The position numbers and the translations under genes are program-made. From Escherichia coli (GTDB taxonomy: Bacteria; Pseudomonadota; Gammaproteobacteria; Enterobacterales; Enterobacteriaceae), in the NCBI RefSeq assembly GCF_003334315.1, contig NZ_QOWR01000023.1: 64,000 nucleotides of DNA, one strand, 5' to 3'. Numbering within the stretch: the first letter of the stretch is position 1; every line of letters starts with the position of its first letter. This document shows, piece by piece, positions 13,851-57,471 of this stretch. Below the pieces are notes generated by a model. It had not been told where the DNA came from. It saw nothing but the letters and a program-made list of their open reading frames with translations, and made no database searches.

Positions 13851-14140
13851 GGTTCTCTCCCTAAAAATCTGTCTGGCAGGGTAGCGATTTGTGCGCATTG
13901 TCACGATTGAGATTTTTTAAGGTGAGGGGAAATTGATAACTTGTAGTTATGTGAAATCGCTATTTTCTGTAGCAGAGATGCATTCTTCTGACTTCTTGTC
14001 TGAGAAAATGCATAAGAAAAAATAGGTTAAAACTGAGGGGGGAAAAGAAAGGTGCAATATTTAGCCATTGTGTTCACTGCACCTGGACCTTGGCTTACGC
14101 ATCGGGTGTCTCAATCAACAAAAAGAGTTTTTAGTTTCTG

Positions 14141-47189: not shown

Positions 47190-48011
47190 ATGTCGTGTGA
47201 AGAACTGGAAATTGTCTGGAACAATATTAAAGCCGAAGCCAGAACGCTGGCGGACTGTGAGCCAATGCTGGCCAGTTTTTACCACGCGACGCTACTCAAG
47301 CACGAAAACCTTGGCAGTGCACTGAGCTACATGCTGGCGAACAAGCTGTCATCGCCAATTATGCCTGCTATTGCTATCCGTGAAGTGGTGGAAGAAGCCT
47401 ACGCCGCTGACCCGGAAATGATCGCCTCTGCGGCCTGTGATATTCAGGCGGTGCGTACCCGCGACCCGGCAGTCGATAAATACTCAACCCCGTTGTTATA
47501 CCTGAAGGGTTTTCATGCCTTGCAGGCCTATCGCATCGGTCACTGGTTGTGGAATCAGGGGCGTCGCGCACTGGCAATCTTTCTGCAAAACCAGGTTTCT
47601 GTGACGTTCCAGGTCGATATTCACCCGGCAGCAAAAATTGGTCGCGGTATCATGCTTGACCACGCGACAGGCATCGTCGTTGGTGAAACGGCGGTGATTG
47701 AAAACGACGTATCGATTCTGCAATCTGTGACGCTTGGCGGTACGGGTAAATCTGGTGGTGACCGTCACCCGAAAATTCGTGAAGGTGTGATGATTGGCGC
47801 GGGCGCGAAAATCCTCGGCAATATTGAAGTTGGGCGCGGCGCGAAGATTGGCGCAGGTTCCGTGGTGCTGCAACCGGTGCCGCCGCATACCACCGCCGCT
47901 GGCGTTCCGGCTCGTATTGTCGGTAAACCAGACAGCGATAAGCCATCAATGGATATGGACCAGCATTTCAACGGTATTAACCATACATTTGAGTATGGGG
48001 ATGGGATCTAA
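47190..48011 (+). CDS. cysE: serine O-acetyltransferase
   Basis: 273-aa ORF with hexapeptide repeats, MSCEELEIVWNNIKAEARTLADCEPMLASFYHA. Confidence 0.96.
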   Translation: MSCEELEIVWNNIKAEARTLADCEPMLASFYHATLLKHENLGSALSYMLANKLSSPIMPAIAIREVVEEAYAADPEMIASAACDIQAVRTRDPAVDKYSTPLLYLKGFHALQAYRIGHWLWNQGRRALAIFLQNQVSVTFQVDIHPAAKIGRGIMLDHATGIVVGETAVIENDVSILQSVTLGGTGKSGGDRHPKIREGVMIGAGAKILGNIEVGRGAKIGAGSVVLQPVPPHTTAAGVPARIVGKPDSDKPSMDMDQHFNGINHTFEYGDGI

Positions 48012-48063
48012 TGTCCTGTGATCGTGCCGGATGCGATGTAATCATCTATCCGGCCTACAGTAA

Positions 48064-48537
48064 CTAATCTCTCAATACCGCTCCCGGATACCCCAACTGC
48101 CGCCAGGCTTCATACACCACTACCGACACCGCATTGGACAGATTCATGCTGCGGCTGTCCGGCACCATCGGAATGCGAATTTTTTGTTCAGCGGGCAGGG
48201 CATCAAGAATGCTCGCTGGCAGGCCGCGTGTTTCCGGGCCGAACATCAGATAATCGCCATCCTGATAGCTTACGGCGCTGTGAGCAGGTGTACCTTTCGT
48301 GGTGAGGGCGAACAGGCGCTGGGGATTTTCTGCTTCGAGGAACGCGCGATAGTCATGATGACGCGTAACGGCGGTAAACTCGTGATAGTCCAGCCCCGCG
48401 CGGCGCAGGCGCTTATCGTCCCAGGCAAATCCCATCGGTTCGATGATATGCAGACGAAAGCCGGTATTAGCGCAAAGACGGATGATGTTGCCAGTATTTG
48501 GCGGAATTTCTGGTTCGTAAAGTACGATGTTTAGCAT
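48064..48537 (-). CDS. trmL: tRNA (cytidine/uridine-2'-O)-methyltransferase TrmL
   Basis: 157-aa SpoU-family [30 protein letters not shown]. Confidence 0.95.
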
Positions 48538-48539
48538 AC

Positions 48540-48730
48540 TGCCCCCTTAGTGCGGGGGCAGGATAGCAGAAAATTGGTGAGCAGTGCGGCCTTTTCCCCT
48601 CACCCCGGCCCTCTCCCCGGAGGGGCGAGGGAGAAAAAAAGAGTGCGGTGTCGTTTCAGAGTGAGGGAGTACATACAGCGCCGAACGGTCCCCTCTCCCT
48701 GAGGGAGAGGGTTAGGGTGAGGGGGCGCAA
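48540..48730. repeat. cluster of GC-rich hairpin repeats between trmL and lldD
   Basis: Several short palindromes (gcccccttagtgcgggggc; ccctctcccc-gg-aggggcgaggg; cccctctccctgagggagaggg; ggtgaggggg) with no coding potential. Confidence 0.6.
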
Positions 48731-48734
48731 ACGA

Positions 48735-49925
48735 CTATGCCGCATTCCCTTTCGCCATGGGAGCCAGTGCCGCAGGCAACTCTTTACCCAGCCCCTGCAC
48801 CAGCGAATCTTGCGTAATTTCGCTGATCGATTTCGCGCCAGTCAGCGTCATCGCCACTTTCATCTCTTTTTCGATCAGATTTAGCAGGTTAGCTACACCC
48901 GCCTGGCCCGCTGTTGCCAGCGCATACAAGAAAGCACGACCCAGCAGTACGGTGTCGGCACCGAGCGCAATCATACGCACGACATCAAGCCCGTTACGAA
49001 TTCCGCTATCCGCCAGAATGGCTATATCACCTTTCACCGCATCTGCAATAGCAGGCAGTGCACGGGCGGAAGAGAGTACACCGTCCAGCTGGCGGCCACC
49101 GTGGTTAGAAACCACAATTCCATCAGCACCAAAACGTACTGCATCGCGCGCATCTTCCGGATCGAGGATCCCTTTGATCACCATCGGGCCATCCCAGAAA
49201 TCGCGGATCCATTCAAGGTCTTTCCATGAGATGGACGGATCGAAGTTATTCCCCAGCCAGCCGATGTAATCTTCCAGTCCGGTCGGTTTGCCGAGATAAG
49301 CTGAGATATTACCTAAATCATGTGGACGACCGTTCAGGCCCACATCCCACGCCCATTGCGGATGTGTCACCGCTTGCAAGTAGCGGCGCATTGCCGCGTT
49401 CGGGCCGCTCATACCTGAATGCGCATCACGGTAGCGTGCGCCCGGTGTCGGCATATCCACGGTGAAAACCAGCGTCGAACAACCCGCTGCTTTTGCTCGC
49501 TCCAGCGCGTTACGCATAAAGCCGCGATCGCGCAGTACATAAAGCTGGAACCACATTGGGCGCTTGATGGCTGGCGCGACTTCTTCAATCGGGCAAACGG
49601 AAACCGTCGAGAGAGTAAACGGAATACCATGCGCGTCCGCCGCTTTGGCTGCCTGAACTTCGCCACGACGCGCATACATGCCACACAAACCCACCGGAGC
49701 CAGTGCCACCGGCATCGACAATTTCTCATTAAACAGCGTCGTTTCCAGGCTTAAGTCGGACATGTTTTTCAGAATACGCTGGCGCAGCGCCACTTCTGAC
49801 AAATCTTCCACGTTGCGGCGCAGCGTGTATTCAGAATATGCACCACCATCCATATAGTGGAACAGGAACGGCGGCAGAATGCGTTGCGCTGCGGCGCGAT
49901 AATCGCTGGCTGCGGAAATAATCAT
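48735..49925 (-). CDS. lldD: FMN-dependent L-lactate dehydrogenase
   Basis: 396-aa [31 protein letters not shown]. Confidence 0.96.
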
Positions 49926-50698
49926 GCGTTTTTCTCCCTCGAATGCTCATTATGCTCACCGGGCAGGCGGGTAATCCGTGCGTGGCGAGCCTGATCTTCA
50001 TCGAATCGTTTCATGGTGGTGTGAACAAAACTAAGGTGCGCCATCATTGCTTTACGCGCCCCGTCAGCATCACCGGCAAAAATGGCGTCAATGACAGCCT
50101 GATGTTGTTCGGTCAGTTGTGAAAAAACCGGTGGCACCAGATACATCCGCTGACGGCTATGCTTCACTGAGGATTGCAGGACATCGAAGAAACCGCGCAT
50201 GGTTTGCAGCAGCACGATGTTATGTGAGGCTTCGGCAATCGCCAGATGAAAACGAACGTCCGCTTGTGAGGCGATATCCGGGTCTTCACTTAGCGTTGCT
50301 TCAAAGCAAAGCTGAATCTTTTCTTTGTCGCCAGGTGTGGCGCGCATTGCCGCATGCCATGCGGTGCTGGCTTCAATGGCGTAGCGGGCTTCCAGAATAT
50401 CGAAACTGTAATCCGGATCATCGGCCATCAGTGTTTTTAGCGGCTGGACGATGTTTTGCTCCGACCATGTGTCATGACGCCAGCGAATAAACGTCCCGCC
50501 GCCGCGTCGACTGAGCAGCACGCCTTCACTCACCAGTTTTGCCAGCGCCTCGCGCAGTGAATTACGTGATACGCCGAGTTGCATCGCCAGTTGGCGCTCA
50601 GCGGGCAACTTCATGCCCGCTTCCAGGTTTTTTTCATCAATCAGCGCCCGCACACGATCGGCAACCTCGTCTGACAGGCGTCTGGGTAAAACAATCAT
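49922..50698 (-). CDS. lldR: GntR-family lactate-responsive regulator
   Basis: ORF track 49922..50713; start trimmed to [23 protein letters not shown] (258 aa). Confidence 0.93.
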
Positions 50699-52353
50699 TA
50701 AGGAATCATCCACGTTAAGACATAAGCCTGAAGCGTGGTGATCACGCCCACTATACAGGTGAAGATCAGGCTGTGTTTGACAGTAAAGCGGAACAAATCA
50801 GACTCTTTGCCCACCAGGCCTACCGCCGCACAGGCGATAGCGATAGATTGCGGGGAGATCATCTTACCGGTGACGCCACCGGTGGTATTGGCGGCAACCA
50901 GCAACAGATCAGAGACGCCAATTTGTTGTGCTGCGGTGGCTTGCAGCGCGGCGAACAGGGCGTTAGATGAGGTATCCGACCCGGTCAGGAATACCCCCAG
51001 CCAGCCGAGGAACGGCGAGAAGAAGGTGAATGCATGACCGGTGTGCGCCAGTGCCAGCGCCAGTGTTGATGACAGTCCGGAATAGTTCGAAATAAAGGCG
51101 AATGCCAGCACCATACCGATGGAGTAGATGGGCAGAGCCAGTTCTTTCAGCGTGCTGCCGAAGGTGCTGATAGCGTCAGACGGTTTCATCTTCAGCCAGA
51201 CAATCGAGAGCAGTGCAGCAAACAGAATGGCGGTGCCGGTGGCAGAGAACCAGTCAAACTTAAACACGGCGGCATAGGCTGTAGCCTCGCTGACCACTGG
51301 CGGCATACGGGCAACCAGTTTATCGAGGTACGGCACCGGAATATTGATCACCCACTCATACAGCGCGCCACCCGATGCGAACAGGGCTTTAAACGGCGGG
51401 ATACTCCACAGTGTTACGGTAGCTGTCAGGAACAGGAACGGTGTCCAGGCACGTAACACCTGACCCGCAGTGTAACCGGTGTGGGCCAGCGTCATATCAA
51501 CCTGTGACGCCCCCAAATCACCAAAACGGAATACACGCACTGGCTGCCAGCGTTTGAGGAACAGCGTCAGGCAGAGCAGTGATACCAGCGAAGAGATAAT
51601 GTCCGGCAGCTCCGGCCCAATGAAGTTAGAGCTAAGGTACTGAGCGATGGCAAACGAGCCGCCCGCAACCACGACCGCAGGCCACGTCTCTTTGATACCG
51701 CGCCAGCCGTCCATAATCGCCATGATCCAGAACAGCACGATAATGGTCATAAACGGTAGCTGCCGCCCCACCATCTGACCAATCTCAAAGCTGTCGATAC
51801 CTGTTACCTGTCCGGCAACCAGGATTGGAATGCCCATCGCACCAAATGCCACTGGCGCGGTGTTAACAATCAGGCACAGCCCGGCGGCGTACAGCGGTTT
51901 AAAACCCAGGCCGACCAGCAATGCGGCGGTAATTGCTACCGGTGCGCCAAAGCCTGCGGCTCCTTCAAGGAACGCGCCGAAACAGAAACCGACGATCAGC
52001 ATTTGCAGACGCTGGTCAGGGGTTATCGAAAGAATAGACGAGCGAATGATGTCAAACTGCCCGGTTTTCACCGAGATCTTATAGACGAACACCGCTGCAA
52101 TAATGATCCACGCGATGGGCCACAACCCGTAGAAGAAACCATAAACCACCGAGGCCAGCGCGTTAGCGACCGGCATTTTATAGAACAGCAAAGCCACGGC
52201 AAGGGCGATTGCCACCGTCCACGAGGCGGCGACGTATCCTTTCAGTTTGAGCTTAATCAGCGCAAAGAAGAAAAACAGGATGGGAAGCGATGCTATCAGA
52301 CTGGAAAGCCAGATATTCCCGGCGGGATCGTAGTTTTGTTGCCAGAGATTCAT
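50698..52353 (-). CDS. lldP: L-lactate permease
   Basis: ORF track 50698..52380; start trimmed to [28 protein letters not shown] (551 aa). Confidence 0.93.
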
Positions 52354-52641
52354 TGCAGGTCTCCTGGAGTCCACGCACATCGTGTAATGAGTCTGTTGCT
52401 CATCTCCTTGTCACACGTTGTGTAAAAGTGGCACTGCCAATTGTGTTGTGTAGGGATAATGACAATGAATGGTTAACTAAATGTTATGTATTGGCAACAT
52501 TGATGTGAGTTTTAATTGGGAAATTGTGAACCAGAGGTCAGATAAGCGAAGAATTGGTAGGGCCAATTCTTGTGGGGGGAGATGTCTGGTAAAGAAAAGG
52601 GCAATCCTCATCAGAGAATTGCCCTTAGGTTGTTGATCCAG

Positions 52642-52690
52642 AGCGCCTTATCTTGCCGGATGCGGCGTGAACACCTTACTCGGCCTATAG
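52642..52690. repeat. REP-like palindromic element
   Basis: gcgccttatcttgccggatgcggcgtgaacaccttactcggcctatag is REP-like (GCCGGATGCGGCG...). Confidence 0.5.
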
Positions 52691-52724
52691 GAATGTGCAG
52701 AATCACCCTGTAGATACTGTGTTC

Positions 52725-53087
52725 TTAAAACGCGGTCTTTGAAAACCCAGTCATCTCCTGCAGGCCCATTTCGCGGCCCAGTGCGGTCATTGGGTGCACA
52801 ACGACCAGTCCGCGAACACTTTTCTTCAGCTTGCCCATATCAGCCTGCTCTTTTTTGGTAATTGCGCGCTGGAATGGCATCTTCATCAGCTTCTGTGCTT
52901 CTTTACTCAGTTTTTGGCTATGAACTTCACGCAGGCGAGCAATTTCTGCTTCCAGCGTGGCTTTCTCTTTTTCCAGCTCGGCATATTTGTCTGCGGCTTC
53001 AACCAGCGAAAGATCGGCCTGCTGGTGGCGGATGGCGTCCAGGCGATCGCTGAGACGTTTGATTTCGTTTTTTTCGACTTCTTTCAT
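52725..53087 (-). CDS. yibL: YibL-family protein (ribosome-associated, function unknown)
   Basis: 120-aa [31 protein letters not shown]; position between lldP and mtlR. Confidence 0.85.
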
Positions 53088-53371
53088 GTGATGGCTTCTG
53101 ATAAAGATAAATTTATAGCCCCTAGTATGCGCGACCAGGTGCTTTGTTCACAACTAATGACATTGTAATAGTTCTGTAACGTAATCATTAACATGCTCAA
53201 AAACTACGCAATTCGTTGATTAATTAAGAAATCTATAGAAAAAAGATAATAAACAGCAGCGGATGATTATTGAGGATTCAGCACGTTTTCCTTAATGTCA
53301 TCTTTACCGGGAACCTAAACTAAAATTGGCGGCCGCGCATTCCCGGCGCGGGGTAATACGGAGATATCATC

Positions 53372-53581
53372 ATGGGCAAATTAGGTGAAAACGTTCCGCT
53401 TCTTATCGATAAAGCCGTAGATTTCATGGCATCAAGCCAGGCGTTCCGGGAGTATCTGAAAAAACTTCCTCCCCGTAACGCGATTCCGTCCGGAATACCC
53501 GATGAAAGCGTGCCGTTATATCTACAACGTCTGGAGTATTATCGTCGGCTTTATCGGCCGAAGCAGGTAGAGGGGCAGTAA
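53372..53581 (+). CDS. yibT: small protein of unknown function (69 aa)
   Basis: 69-aa [34 protein letters not shown], isolated in an intergenic gap; symbol assigned from position only. Confidence 0.5.
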
Positions 53582-53592
53582 GCAGACGTTGC

Positions 53593-54180
53593 TTACTTTT
53601 GAAAGGCTTTTTTTAAGCTGATTTTGGAAATCAGCTCAGTCAGTGAAAGGACCATTGTTGATCGCACAGCCTGTTGATAGCGCTGAATTTGCATTGCATA
53701 CAAACTGGAGTCTGCTGGTTCAAACTGTGGCGGCGGTGGTAACGCCGCCACGCAGTGCAGTTCACCAAAGGGTCCAAGGATTTCGTCGTCGGTAAAGGCG
53801 TACTCGTTGCCGTCGTGATTTAGCTCTTCACGCAATGCCATCAGCAGTTCCGCATCTTCGTATTCCTGGCGGTTAATGACGCCCAACCCGTAAATGAGTT
53901 TTAAACGCACAGAAAGATCGCCCAGCGGACCATCGCCGTCGAGTAACGGTTCTACAGCATACTTCACCGCGTAATCGTCTTTGCGGAATACCTGAAGCAC
54001 CAGAAGATTTACCGCCTCGGTCAGGAGCTCGACGGCGGTGATCAGAAAGCTTCGCACGGTTTTGCCAGCATTCAGACGCTCAAGCACACGGTTTTCAAAG
54101 GCCTGGGTTTGTTCCATTGTTGCCTGCATATCTGACAATCTGTTATTCGGGCGCAGGGTGTCCTGCGCCTGGTCCACCAT
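53593..54180 (-). CDS. mtlR: mannitol operon repressor
   Basis: 195-aa [34 protein letters not shown]; directly downstream of mtlD. Confidence 0.93.
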   Translation of the reverse strand: MVDQAQDTLRPNNRLSDMQATMEQTQAFENRVLERLNAGKTVRSFLITAVELLTEAVNLLVLQVFRKDDYAVKYAVEPLLDGDGPLGDLSVRLKLIYGLGVINRQEYEDAELLMALREELNHDGNEYAFTDDEILGPFGELHCVAALPPPPQFEPADSSLYAMQIQRYQQAVRSTMVLSLTELISKISLKKAFQK

Positions 54181-55328
54181 TATTGCATTGCTTTATAAGC
54201 GGTTACCGCCTCGGATACAACCTCGCTGTTGGCATCAAGACCGGAAATCTGTGCCAGCGCCGCCTGCGGACCTTTGTCAGCGATCAGTGCTGCCAGTTCC
54301 TGAGCCTGCGGATCATCTTCACTGCGGAAGTGCATTGCAGCGGCAATACCTTCAATCAGGTTTTTATGTGGCAGACCATATTCCAGCGTACCGAGCAGTG
54401 GCTTGATCAGACGGTCGCCAGCACTCAGTTTACGCAGTGGCTGACGGCCTACGCGCTCTACATCATCTTTCAGATACGGGTTCTCAAAACGGCCGAGAAT
54501 TTTCTGGATGTACGCCGCATGCTTGTCAGCGTCAAAGCCGTAGCGCTTGATCAATACTGCACCACTTTCTTCCATCGCACCTTTTACCACCGCGCGGATT
54601 TTCTCGTCGAGAATCGCGTCACGAATGGTCTGATGACCGGCCAGTTTTCCGAGGTACGCGGTTATAGCATGACCCGTGTTCAGGGTGAAGAGTTTACGTT
54701 CGACAAATGCCATCAGGTTGTCGGTTAACTCCATGCCTGGGATGTTCGGCAGTGCGCCTTTGAACTGCGTTTTATCGACAATCCATTCGCTGAAGGTTTC
54801 TACCGTCACTTCCAGCGGATCGTTAGTTGCCGAAGCCGAAGGCGGTACGATGCGGTCAACGGCGGAATCGACAAAGCCAACGTGTTCTTCTACCCACGCT
54901 TTGGCGTCTTCCGGCAGGGCGTTCATCACATGGCCTTTCAGCTGCGTGGTACCGCGTACCATGTTTTCACAGGCGATGATGTTCAGCGGGGATTCATTAC
55001 CTTGTTCTTTACGTTTCACCAGCCCTTTGGCGATTGCCGGAGCAATACGTTCCAGCACAACCGGGCCAACGGCGGTAGTGACTAAATCAACCTGAGCAAT
55101 CAGATCAACGACATCATCACCAATGCTGCTGACAGCATTGACGCCGGAAACGGTATCTACCTGCTCGGTTTCACCAACCACATGTACCTGATAGCTATGA
55201 CGGGCATTCAGGGCATCAAGTACCACCTGATTGACATCGGCAAACGTCAGTTGGATACCCGCGTCTGCCAGCAGTTTACCGATAAAGCCACGACCGATAT
55301 TACCTGCGCCAAAATGTAATGCTTTCAT
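54180..55328 (-). CDS. mtlD: mannitol-1-phosphate 5-dehydrogenase
   Basis: ORF track 54180..55646; start trimmed to [24 protein letters not shown] (382 aa); cat seen at 55326-55328. Confidence 0.95.
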
Positions 55329-55339
55329 AGTATTAACCT

Positions 55340-55557
55340 TCATCAATGTTTTTACCCGAGAGGGCTGGGGTGAGGCTTTTCCCTCACCCAAACCCTCTCC
55401 GTGAGGAGAGGGGCAGCGCCGGATGCGGCGTAAGCGCCTTATCCGGCCTACAAGAACGTGCAAATTCAACAAATTGTGATGCATCCTGTAGGCCTGATAA
55501 GCGTAGCGCATCAGGCAATTAACCCCACCTTCTCCATGTGGAGAGGGTGGGATTGGA
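55340..55557. repeat. REP elements plus GC-rich hairpins in the mtlA-mtlD intergenic region
   Basis: gccggatgcggcgtaagcgccttatccggcctaca and ctgtaggcctgataagcgtagcgcatcaggc (REP), flanked by ccctctccgtgaggagaggg and cccaccttctccatgtggagagggtggg hairpins. Confidence 0.8.
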
Positions 55558-57471
55558 TTACTTACGACCTGCCAGCAGTTCCAGCACTTCATCCACGCTG
55601 GTGGTGTGTGCCAGACGCTCGATGACGGACTCATCATCCAGTGCATTGGTCAGGCTGGTGATAACCTGAATGTGCTCGTTGTTACGGGCAGCAATACCAA
55701 TCACCAGACGGGCAATGTCATCTTCTTCTTCACCGAAGCGCACGCCTTCCGGGTACTGGCAGAACACGACGCCCGTTTTCAGTACGCGATCTTTCGCTTC
55801 AACCGTACCGTGTGGCACCGCGATAGACTCACCCAGATAAGTCGGGGTCAGTTTTTCACGATCCAGCATCGCCTGAACGTATTCCGGCTCAACGTAACCG
55901 CCTTTCACCAGCTGCTCGCCAGCAAAACGAATCGCTTCTTCTTTGGTTGCCGCTTTGCGACCGAGGAAGATGTTCTCCGCGCCTAGCTTGAACAGGTTAG
56001 CACTGGAATCGTCAAAGCTGTCTTTCAGGCTGTCTTTTACTTTCTCTTCGTTTGCCGTGTGGCGTTGGGCAGCAACCAGACGTTCGGTCAGGCTGGTGTA
56101 CAGGCCGCTGTCGAGGAAGTTGGTCAGCGAAATATGCTGTGCCTGCGGAACCTGGCGCATAGCGCGTTCGGTCAGGTCACGGTGAGTGATGACGAGGTCC
56201 ACATCTGGCGGCAGGTTGTTGATCGCGCTGTTAGTAACAGAAATCTGCGACAGACCTGCATCCTGAATTTTCTTACGCAGAACGCCTGCGCCCATCGCAC
56301 TGGAACCCATACCGGCGTCACAGGCAACGATGATTTTACGTACGTGGCTCAGGTCGTTAGTCACATCGCCAGCAGACAGCGGAGATGCGCCTTTAGACTC
56401 AGCTTTCATGTCCTGCATACGACGAGTTGCTGCTTCAATATCATCTTCTTCTTTCACTTTGCTGGTTTTCAGCAAAATAGCAGAGACAACGAAGGAGACA
56501 GCCATCGCCGCACACACACCCGCGATGTTAGCGAAGTAAGCACCTTTTGGTGTCATCGCCAGTACAGCAAGGATAGAACCCGGAGATGCCGGAGAAACCA
56601 GACCACCGCCCAGGATAGTCAGCGTGAACACGCCAGTCATACCGCCGAGGATGACTGCGAGGATCAGACGCGGATTCATCAGCACATACGGGAAGTAGAT
56701 TTCGTGGATACCCCCCAGGAAGTGGATGATTGCCGCACCGCCCGCAGACTGTTTAGCGCTACCACGACCAAAGAACATGTACGCCAGCAGCACGCCCATA
56801 CCTGGACCTGGGTTAGCTTCAATCAGGAAGAAGATTGATTTACCCAGTTCATGGGACTGCTGAATACCCAGCGGCGAGAAGATACCGTGGTTAATGGCGT
56901 TGTTGAGGAACAGGATTTTCGCCGGTTCAACAAAGATAGACGCCAGCGGCAGCATGTCATGGACAACCATGAAGTTAACGCCCGCAGCCAGCATTTTGGA
57001 CAGGGCTTCAACAATCGGGCCAATGCCGAGGAATGCCAGAATAGCGAGGATCATCCCGATGATGCCTGCGGAGAAGTTATTCACCAGCATCTCAAAACCG
57101 GATTTGATCTTACCGTCTACCCAGCGGTCGAAGTGCTTAATGCACCAGCCGCCCAGCGGACCTGCAATCATAGAACCGAGGAACATCGGCATGTCTGCGC
57201 CGACGATAACGCCCATGGTGGTGATGGCACCGACTACGCCGCCACGTTCGCCGCCTACCAGCTTACCACCGGTATAACCGATCAGCAGCGGCAGGAGATA
57301 AGTGATCATCGGCCCGACCAGCTTCGCCAGCGTCTCGTTCGGTAACCACCCTGTTGGAATAAATAACGCGGTGATGATACCCCACGCGATAAACGCGCCG
57401 ATATTTGGCATCACCATGTTGCTGAGGAAACGACCAAAGCTTTGCACTTTGATCTTAATATCGGATGACAT
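55558..57471 (-). CDS. mtlA: PTS mannitol-specific EIICBA
   Basis: 637-aa [35 protein letters not shown]. Confidence 0.97.

Follow-up and report, generated by a model that had tools for sequence, protein, structure and literature searches.

The GC-rich palindromes in the intergenic regions between trmL and lldD and between mtlD and mtlA belong to the BoxC repeats of E. coli, which also go by the names PIT and TMECO and have been known since the 1990s; both copies in the trmL-lldD gap have published coordinates. The trmL-lldD gap is occupied by an intact inverted pair of one type A and one type B unit, and the element in the mtlD-mtlA gap may, judged from its sequence, be read as a decayed head-to-head BoxC pair that is fixed in the species and lies beside a REP cluster. 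With a probability of roughly 0.85, BoxC at both loci would be passenger DNA with the potential to fold into a hairpin or a triplex, and instability of the surrounding gap is the effect that can be seen.

BoxC repeats are non-coding, measure about 50-56 bp and are interspersed in roughly 20 copies on a typical E. coli chromosome. Each unit consists of three blocks, CCCTCNCCC / GGGNGAGGG / GGGNGAGGG, in which a pyrimidine block is followed by a purine block complementary to it and then by a further purine block. PIT (potential intrastrand triplex) elements were reportedly described by Hoyne et al. in 2000. BoxC is listed as a known E. coli family, with literature values of 56 bp and 32 copies, in a study whose own model recovered 22 copies (Cozzuto 2008, PMC2267715), and the PIT/TMECO elements are the same sequences under another name, with the consensus core CCCTCNCCC - N3-6 - GGGNGAGGG - N3 - GGGNGAGGG (Holder 2015, PMC4666352). 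The latter work demonstrated triplex formation in vitro by type A and type B oligonucleotides, using CD and NMR, and reported that DMS protection was absent in vivo; it counted 3,610 TMECO copies in 262 genomes and saw no link between them and transposons, phages or plasmids.

The window, by which we mean the whole stretch of 64,000 nucleotides that was analysed, is K-12-like (100% identity to E. coli K-12) and runs as the reverse complement of MG1655, such that the NC_000913.3 position equals 3,829,752 minus the window position. Transcription proceeds on the window minus strand in both gaps, the first of which lies 3' of lldD while the second separates mtlA from mtlD. The features are collected in Table 1.

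Table 1. Genes, gaps and repeat features of the two loci, in window coordinates.
Feature	Position	Strand	Basis or remark
trmL	48064-48537	-	
trmL-lldD gap	48538-48734		197 nt
BoxC unit, identical letter-for-letter to eco:17_BoxC	48592-48643	+	exact string match, Cozzuto 2008 supplementary FASTA
TMECO no. 18 core, type B with one mismatched triad	48596-48631		read on minus strand
GGGNGAGGG-NNN-GGGNGAGGG match	48597-48617	-	
Spacer between the two inverted BoxC cores	48632-48690	.	59 nt
BoxC unit, identical letter-for-letter to eco:16_BoxC	48679-48724	-	exact string match, Cozzuto 2008 supplementary FASTA
TMECO no. 17 core, type A	48691-48724		read on plus strand
GGGNGAGGG-NNN-GGGNGAGGG match	48703-48723	+	
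lldD	48735-49925	-	
mtlD	54180-55328	-	annotated start 55328
mtlD-mtlA gap	55329-55557		229 nt
Truncated second BoxC copy, GAGAGGG-CTG-GGGTGAGG	55358-55375	+	partial nhmmer match, only E=0.64
Diverged BoxC unit, 8-nt arms	55377-55413	+	nhmmer E=1.6e-5, 20.9 bits, model positions 2-41
GGGNGAGGG-NNN-GGGNGAGGG match	55381-55401	-	
Two inverted REP units, one BIME-like cluster	55418-55516	.	GCCGGATGCGGCG exact at 55418; dyads I2, I4, I6
Separate hairpin, CCCACCTTCTCC-ATGT-GGAGAGGGTGGG	55521-55554	.	inverted repeat I3; 4 nt after mtlA stop codon
mtlA	55558-57471	-	

An initial annotation had proposed that the two gaps share one family of short hairpin repeats, which it could not name. That the family is shared is borne out by motif counts far above chance and by profile matches in both gaps. 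The 64 kb contain two occurrences of the motif CCCTCTCC-N(2-12)-GGAGAGGG (48691-48711 and 55393-55412), for which shuffled sequences give an expectation of 0.00, and GGGNGAGGG-NNN-GGGNGAGGG with up to two mismatches occurs three times in the window where none is expected. CCCTCACC was counted five times against an expectation of 0.97, with three of the copies inside the repeats; the other two, at 13921 and at 48301 (inside trmL), agree with the chance expectation. Comparison with the catalogues supplied the name. Both units of the trmL-lldD gap match published members exactly (eco:16 and eco:17 as well as TMECO 17 and 18), and the unnamed family is therefore BoxC, or PIT/TMECO. The published coordinates of TMECO 17 (3,781,028-3,781,061) and TMECO 18 (3,781,121-3,781,156) convert exactly to window positions 48724-48691 and 48631-48596 (Holder 2015, Table 1, PMC4666352), and the supplement to that paper places both elements between lldD and trmL.

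The trmL-lldD units were also recovered by an nhmmer model built from 20 published BoxC members with the two window copies left out (E=3.3e-12 for the eco:17 unit and E=1e-10 for the eco:16 unit, which lies ~10 nt past the stop codon of lldD). Both contain the strict three-block pattern, at 48691-48723 (+) and 48597-48631 (-); the core of TMECO 17 reads CCCTCTCCC-TGA-GGGAGAGGG-TTA-GGGTGAGGGG and that of TMECO 18 reads CCCTCGCCCC-TCC-GGGGAGAGGG-CCG-GGGTGAGGGG. A rule-based check that admits the purine-motif triads G.G-C, A.A-T and T.A-T, and thus shows triplex potential only, returned canonical triads at 9/9 positions in the type A unit, 8/9 in the type B unit and, in an 8-nt register, 8/8 in the mtl unit. 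MG1655 has five inverted A+B pairs; in the one formed by TMECO 17 and 18 the third blocks point outwards across the spacer of 59 nt, whereas in the other four pairs the third blocks face each other across 16-27 nt.

The description of these sequences as short palindromes has to be modified. The repeats are real, but the unit has three blocks with the potential for an intrastrand triplex and is not a simple palindrome. In the mtl gap GGGGTGAGG and CCTCACCC do form a local hairpin, as had been proposed, but CCCTCACC in the trmL-lldD gap has no partner nearby with which to form a palindrome; there it makes up the third of the three blocks of a unit, and the sequence complementary to it is found in the second, inverted unit, at a distance of ~120 nt. 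A separate hairpin (ATACTGCCCCC / GGGGGCAGGAT, 48536-48564) overlaps the start codon of trmL together with the G-rich stretch that immediately precedes this codon on the minus strand; the hairpin is unchanged in 7/7 aligned strains and could occlude the initiation of trmL translation.

The mtl gap also belongs to the family, although its member is diverged and partly collapsed. On the minus strand, which is the sense of the mtl mRNA, this member reads CCCTCTCC-TCAC-GGAGAGGG-TTT-GGGTGAGG. It appears in neither published list, as far as these are accessible (the 22 members of Cozzuto 2008; Table 1 and supplement of Holder 2015). The strict TMECO pattern with 9-nt blocks found no match in 55377-55413, where the arms CCCTCTCC / GGAGAGGG are 8 nt long, and the two-block pattern GGGNGAGGG-NNN-GGGNGAGGG requires one mismatch; because the strict three-block pattern fails, the unit is to be regarded as a diverged relative and not as a TMECO in the strict sense. 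It departs from catalogued BoxC in its 8-nt arms, its TTT second loop and the truncated inverted copy fused to it. The two copies lie head-to-head around a 6-nt spacer and create an 18-bp interrupted palindrome (55358-55399, 89% complementary), and the RNA fold computed for the composite has an energy of -38.6 kcal/mol (z=-3.45). Three of the MG1655 pairs (7+8, 10+11 and 12+13) have a homologous 27-nt spacer in common, so that the A-spacer-B arrangement, ~125 nt long, constitutes a composite repeat in its own right. In the mtl element the head-to-head layout is that of TMECO 7+8 and the second loop, CTG, is that of TMECO 8, with a spacer reduced to 6 nt and a truncated second copy. The diverged unit was found at coverage of at least 80% in 5,405/5,426 genomes, with a median of one place per genome, and is nearly invariant, with at least 99% identity in 4,823 genomes.

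Classical REP units had likewise been noted in the mtl gap, and they are present: besides the exact GCCGGATGCGGCG, the cluster has inverted arms at 55438-55455 / 55484-55501, and it sits between the BoxC-like element and the second hairpin. The REPs gave a sub-threshold match to naRNA4, a REP-derived Rfam family, and a query that included them found at least 40 places per E. coli genome. The BoxC model, in turn, did not match the REPs of this gap. Further REP-like units with sub-threshold naRNA4 matches were observed at 48020-48055 (cysE-trmL gap) and at 52527-52685 (between lldP and yibL), where GCCGGATGCGGCG recurs at 52655 and a sub-threshold STnc380 match at 52527-52635 scores 36.4 bits against a gathering score of 60. 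The second mtl hairpin was not detected as a member of the family. It folds stably as RNA (-23.2 kcal/mol, z=-5.6) and has a TCTCC...GGAGAGGG core in common with the BoxC arms, without a third block; it is single-copy (median one place per genome) and the BoxC profile gives no match, and it was rejected as a BoxC member. In strain A34 this second hairpin has a perfect 12-bp stem. We also observed that a mechanical open reading frame of 488 aa (54180-55646, minus strand) runs mtlD upstream across the BoxC/REP gap into the 3' end of mtlA, and a naive gene caller could over-extend mtlD in the same way.

An Rfam search in permissive E-value mode over 48000-56000 returned no family for the BoxC motifs, with the sub-threshold REP/naRNA4 and STnc380 matches as the only matches, and the current RefSeq record of MG1655 has no repeat features annotated at these gaps.

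The family is by no means unique to the two sites. A 51-nt type A consensus, used as query against 5,426 complete E. coli genomes, found 89,818 places, with at least one in every genome (5,426/5,426; median 18 per genome, range 1-31). The copies are almost all chromosomal (54/89,818 on plasmids), and no annotated features lay beneath BoxC among the 15 matches listed. The elements occur in both orientations and without bias towards genes, the roughly 20 loci per genome have no gene function in common, and a G/A mismatch in the stem is conserved in the commonest subtype. Type A copies with this mismatch are nearly identical to one another, and type A copies have common flanks outside the triplex core, which define a longer unit.

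Beyond E. coli, contig scans, which show breadth of occurrence only and not counts, placed the strict pattern in several copies, among the matches listed, in a Polaromonas MAG, two Pseudomonas genomes, Verrucomicrobiales, Hyphomicrobiales, Methylomagnum and other MAGs, and as single matches among those listed in a cyanobacterium, a Bacteroidaceae MAG and an archaeal MAG. Lineage-specific longer repeats in unrelated phyla contain the same core. The copies in distant phyla each have their own flanks and often, among the matches listed, the same G of the Y arm mismatching an A of the R arm, and the copies of Pseudomonas sp. dw_612 carry the E. coli type A flank CTCGGTCAGTC. The strict TMECO core was also found on IMG/VR viral contigs, some of them with several copies among the matches listed, in contrast to Holder 2015 (PMC4666352), where no association with phages was found.

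The allelic variation at individual loci is extensive. The trmL-lldD gap is K-12-like in only 3,522/5,421 genomes, and in about a third the BoxC pair is altered or absent. The pyrimidine arm lacks 12 nt in the O103 allele, a remnant of one block is left in 118UI, and in ST131, SFAD3 and A36 the element is absent and 21 nt of unrelated sequence stand in its place. In the UCPROB-002 allele a palindrome replaces most of the spacer and the adjoining repeat arms. This palindrome between the BoxC halves, CTGTCTCTTGATCAGGAGATCTGATCAAGAGACAG (about 228-262 of allele L003), is, judged by length, probably also present in the ~357-nt allele class (H46-H51), and it resembles two IS50/Tn5 inside-end 19-mers in inverted orientation. 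In the mtl gap the REP copy number differs by strain, with 0 in O157, 2 in K-12, 4 in others, 6 in CFT073 and 8 in FEA3, as a unit of two REPs, ~101 nt long, is reiterated in tandem, and the REP-free O157 allele is a deletion that joins GGAGAGGG at 55405-55412 to GGAGAGGG at 55541-55548 in the second hairpin. The loop of the mtl hairpin (55401-55404) reads GTGA in K-12, ATGT in ECSC054 and ACAT in A34, and across seven strains the loop changes leave the arms unchanged. The ATGT and ACAT loops are reverse complements of each other, as would be expected from template switching within the hairpin, which suggests that the loop was inverted by this route.

Deletions at yjdP-phnP are nested and end in the arm repeats CCCCTC / CCCTCNC, and the short allele of adk-hemH contains unrelated sequence as a replacement. 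At pstA-pstB (TMECO 19) the K-12 allele has 92 additional nt containing BoxC (L138 173-264 versus L140/L141), bounded by a perfect 8-bp direct repeat, AACCGTGT, of which the short allele has a single copy. The insert itself contains the 8-mer a third time, and the difference could have arisen by target-site duplication or by slippage deletion. The zntA-tusA gap, a sixth locus, keeps the element in nearly all genomes, and longer alleles occur in few, among those listed. That variability around BoxC is in excess rests on the control sites of Holder 2015 (PMC4666352), where it was higher around TMECO than at those sites, and the local allelic series described here agrees with this published link between BoxC and instability.

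In single-stranded DNA or RNA the first two blocks of BoxC form a hairpin, and in single-stranded DNA the third block can lie in its major groove and give a purine-motif intrastrand triplex, as work by others has demonstrated in vitro. The reiterated arms serve as end points of deletions, and the loop changes resemble template switching; we infer that slippage or template switching causes the insertions and deletions. At both loci the elements are most likely passenger DNA that provides neither promoter nor terminator and is dispensable at trmL-lldD, and a lack of function at both loci is what we infer. A search of either gap found no sigma-70 or intrinsic-terminator consensus, and readings as promoter or intrinsic terminator were rejected on that ground. 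The absence of such sites matches the inactivity reported for PIT elements, which, as Holder 2015 (PMC4666352) relates from earlier work, act neither as promoters nor as terminators and leave RNA polymerase unaffected.

The interpretation as passenger repeats should nevertheless be viewed with some caution. The mtl copy is nearly invariant, and it lies inside an operon; the pstA-pstB copy has an operon position as well. Invariance and operon position of the mtl copy could reflect function, but the ordinary conservation of E. coli intergenic regions fits equally well. Moreover, slippage leaves unexplained that at two of the five polymorphic loci unrelated sequence has been substituted instead of a deletion having occurred, and the recurrence of the same core with a conserved mismatch across many phyla is hard to reconcile with purely neutral DNA.

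An alternative that we consider unlikely is a role at the RNA level, in which the elements would act as REP-like stabilisers that block 3'-5' exonucleases, set cistron levels or stall ribosomes that end upstream. The sense-strand hairpins predicted for the mtl gap are stable (z=-3.45 and z=-5.6), whereas the canonical trmL-lldD units fold little better than shuffled sequences (z=-0.85 to -2.2) and the commonest subtype retains its G/A stem mismatch; a simple hairpin under selection was rejected on these two grounds. The sites do lie within or just downstream of operons (mtlA-mtlD, pstA-pstB, lldD-trmL), yet the family occurs in both orientations with no bias directed towards genes, and the trmL-lldD pair is lost or altered in about a third of strains. 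Fixation of the mtl element in the species, with arms that remain constant despite the loop changes across seven strains, would favour such a role, and it is opposed by the report, related in Holder 2015, that PIT elements neither affect RNA polymerase nor terminate transcription.

It is rather improbable that BoxC is a miniature mobile element, moved by an enzyme and inserting with a short target duplication, and that the window copies are old insertions. The 92 extra nt at pstA-pstB, placed between perfect 8-bp repeats with one copy in the short allele, have the form that such an insertion would leave, but with a further 8-mer within the insert they are explained just as well by a slippage deletion. 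Direct repeats were seen at only one of the five polymorphic loci, ambiguously, and the others show replacements or internal deletions; target-site duplication as a general feature was accordingly rejected. The common flanks of type A copies and the near identity of those with the mismatch, as after a recent burst, agree with mobility, as do the shared core in lineage-specific longer repeats of unrelated phyla and the motif on IMG/VR contigs; against this, terminal inverted repeats were not seen at the unit ends, and 54/89,818 places on plasmids, together with the lack of association with transposons, phages or plasmids in Holder 2015, do not suggest a travelling element. A bolder combination, in which BoxC would be a mobile element, active still or until recently, that generates 8-bp duplications, its core a recognition module used across phyla and the mtl pair co-opted as an intercistronic RNA structure, strikes us as a long shot.

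Very little speaks for the idea that the motifs are binding sites of a sequence-specific regulator or nucleoid protein through which lld and mtl would be co-regulated. Its purine and pyrimidine blocks are strongly conserved, even at positions that would be free in a purely structural model, but the roughly 20 loci per genome lack a common gene function, the elements are dispensable at trmL-lldD, and we know of no protein that binds BoxC. Chance likeness between GC-rich sequences is practically excluded by two or three observed motifs against 0.00 expected, by E-values down to 3e-12 and by the 89,818 places across E. coli genomes.

The passenger-repeat interpretation concerns sequences that are not new: the repeat is a catalogued one, met here anew, and coordinates for both trmL-lldD copies are already in the literature. 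What is added is the uncatalogued decayed pair of the mtl operon, which strict definitions miss, together with the census of 5,426 genomes and the allelic series at five loci. Compared with miniature inverted-repeat elements (MITEs), BoxC was seen with neither terminal inverted repeats nor a consistent target duplication nor a parent insertion sequence; like ERIC/IRU, however, it is small, non-coding, multi-copy and polymorphic for presence and absence, and one BoxC locus has direct repeats. From REP/BIME it differs in consensus, REP being a two-arm imperfect palindrome and BoxC a series of three homopurine/homopyrimidine blocks. REP has a dedicated transposase, RAYT, and to our knowledge there is no corresponding enzyme for BoxC. 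The likeness between the two systems is nonetheless close, since both are short, GC-rich, hairpin-forming intergenic repeats, adjoin each other in the mtl gap and vary from strain to strain.
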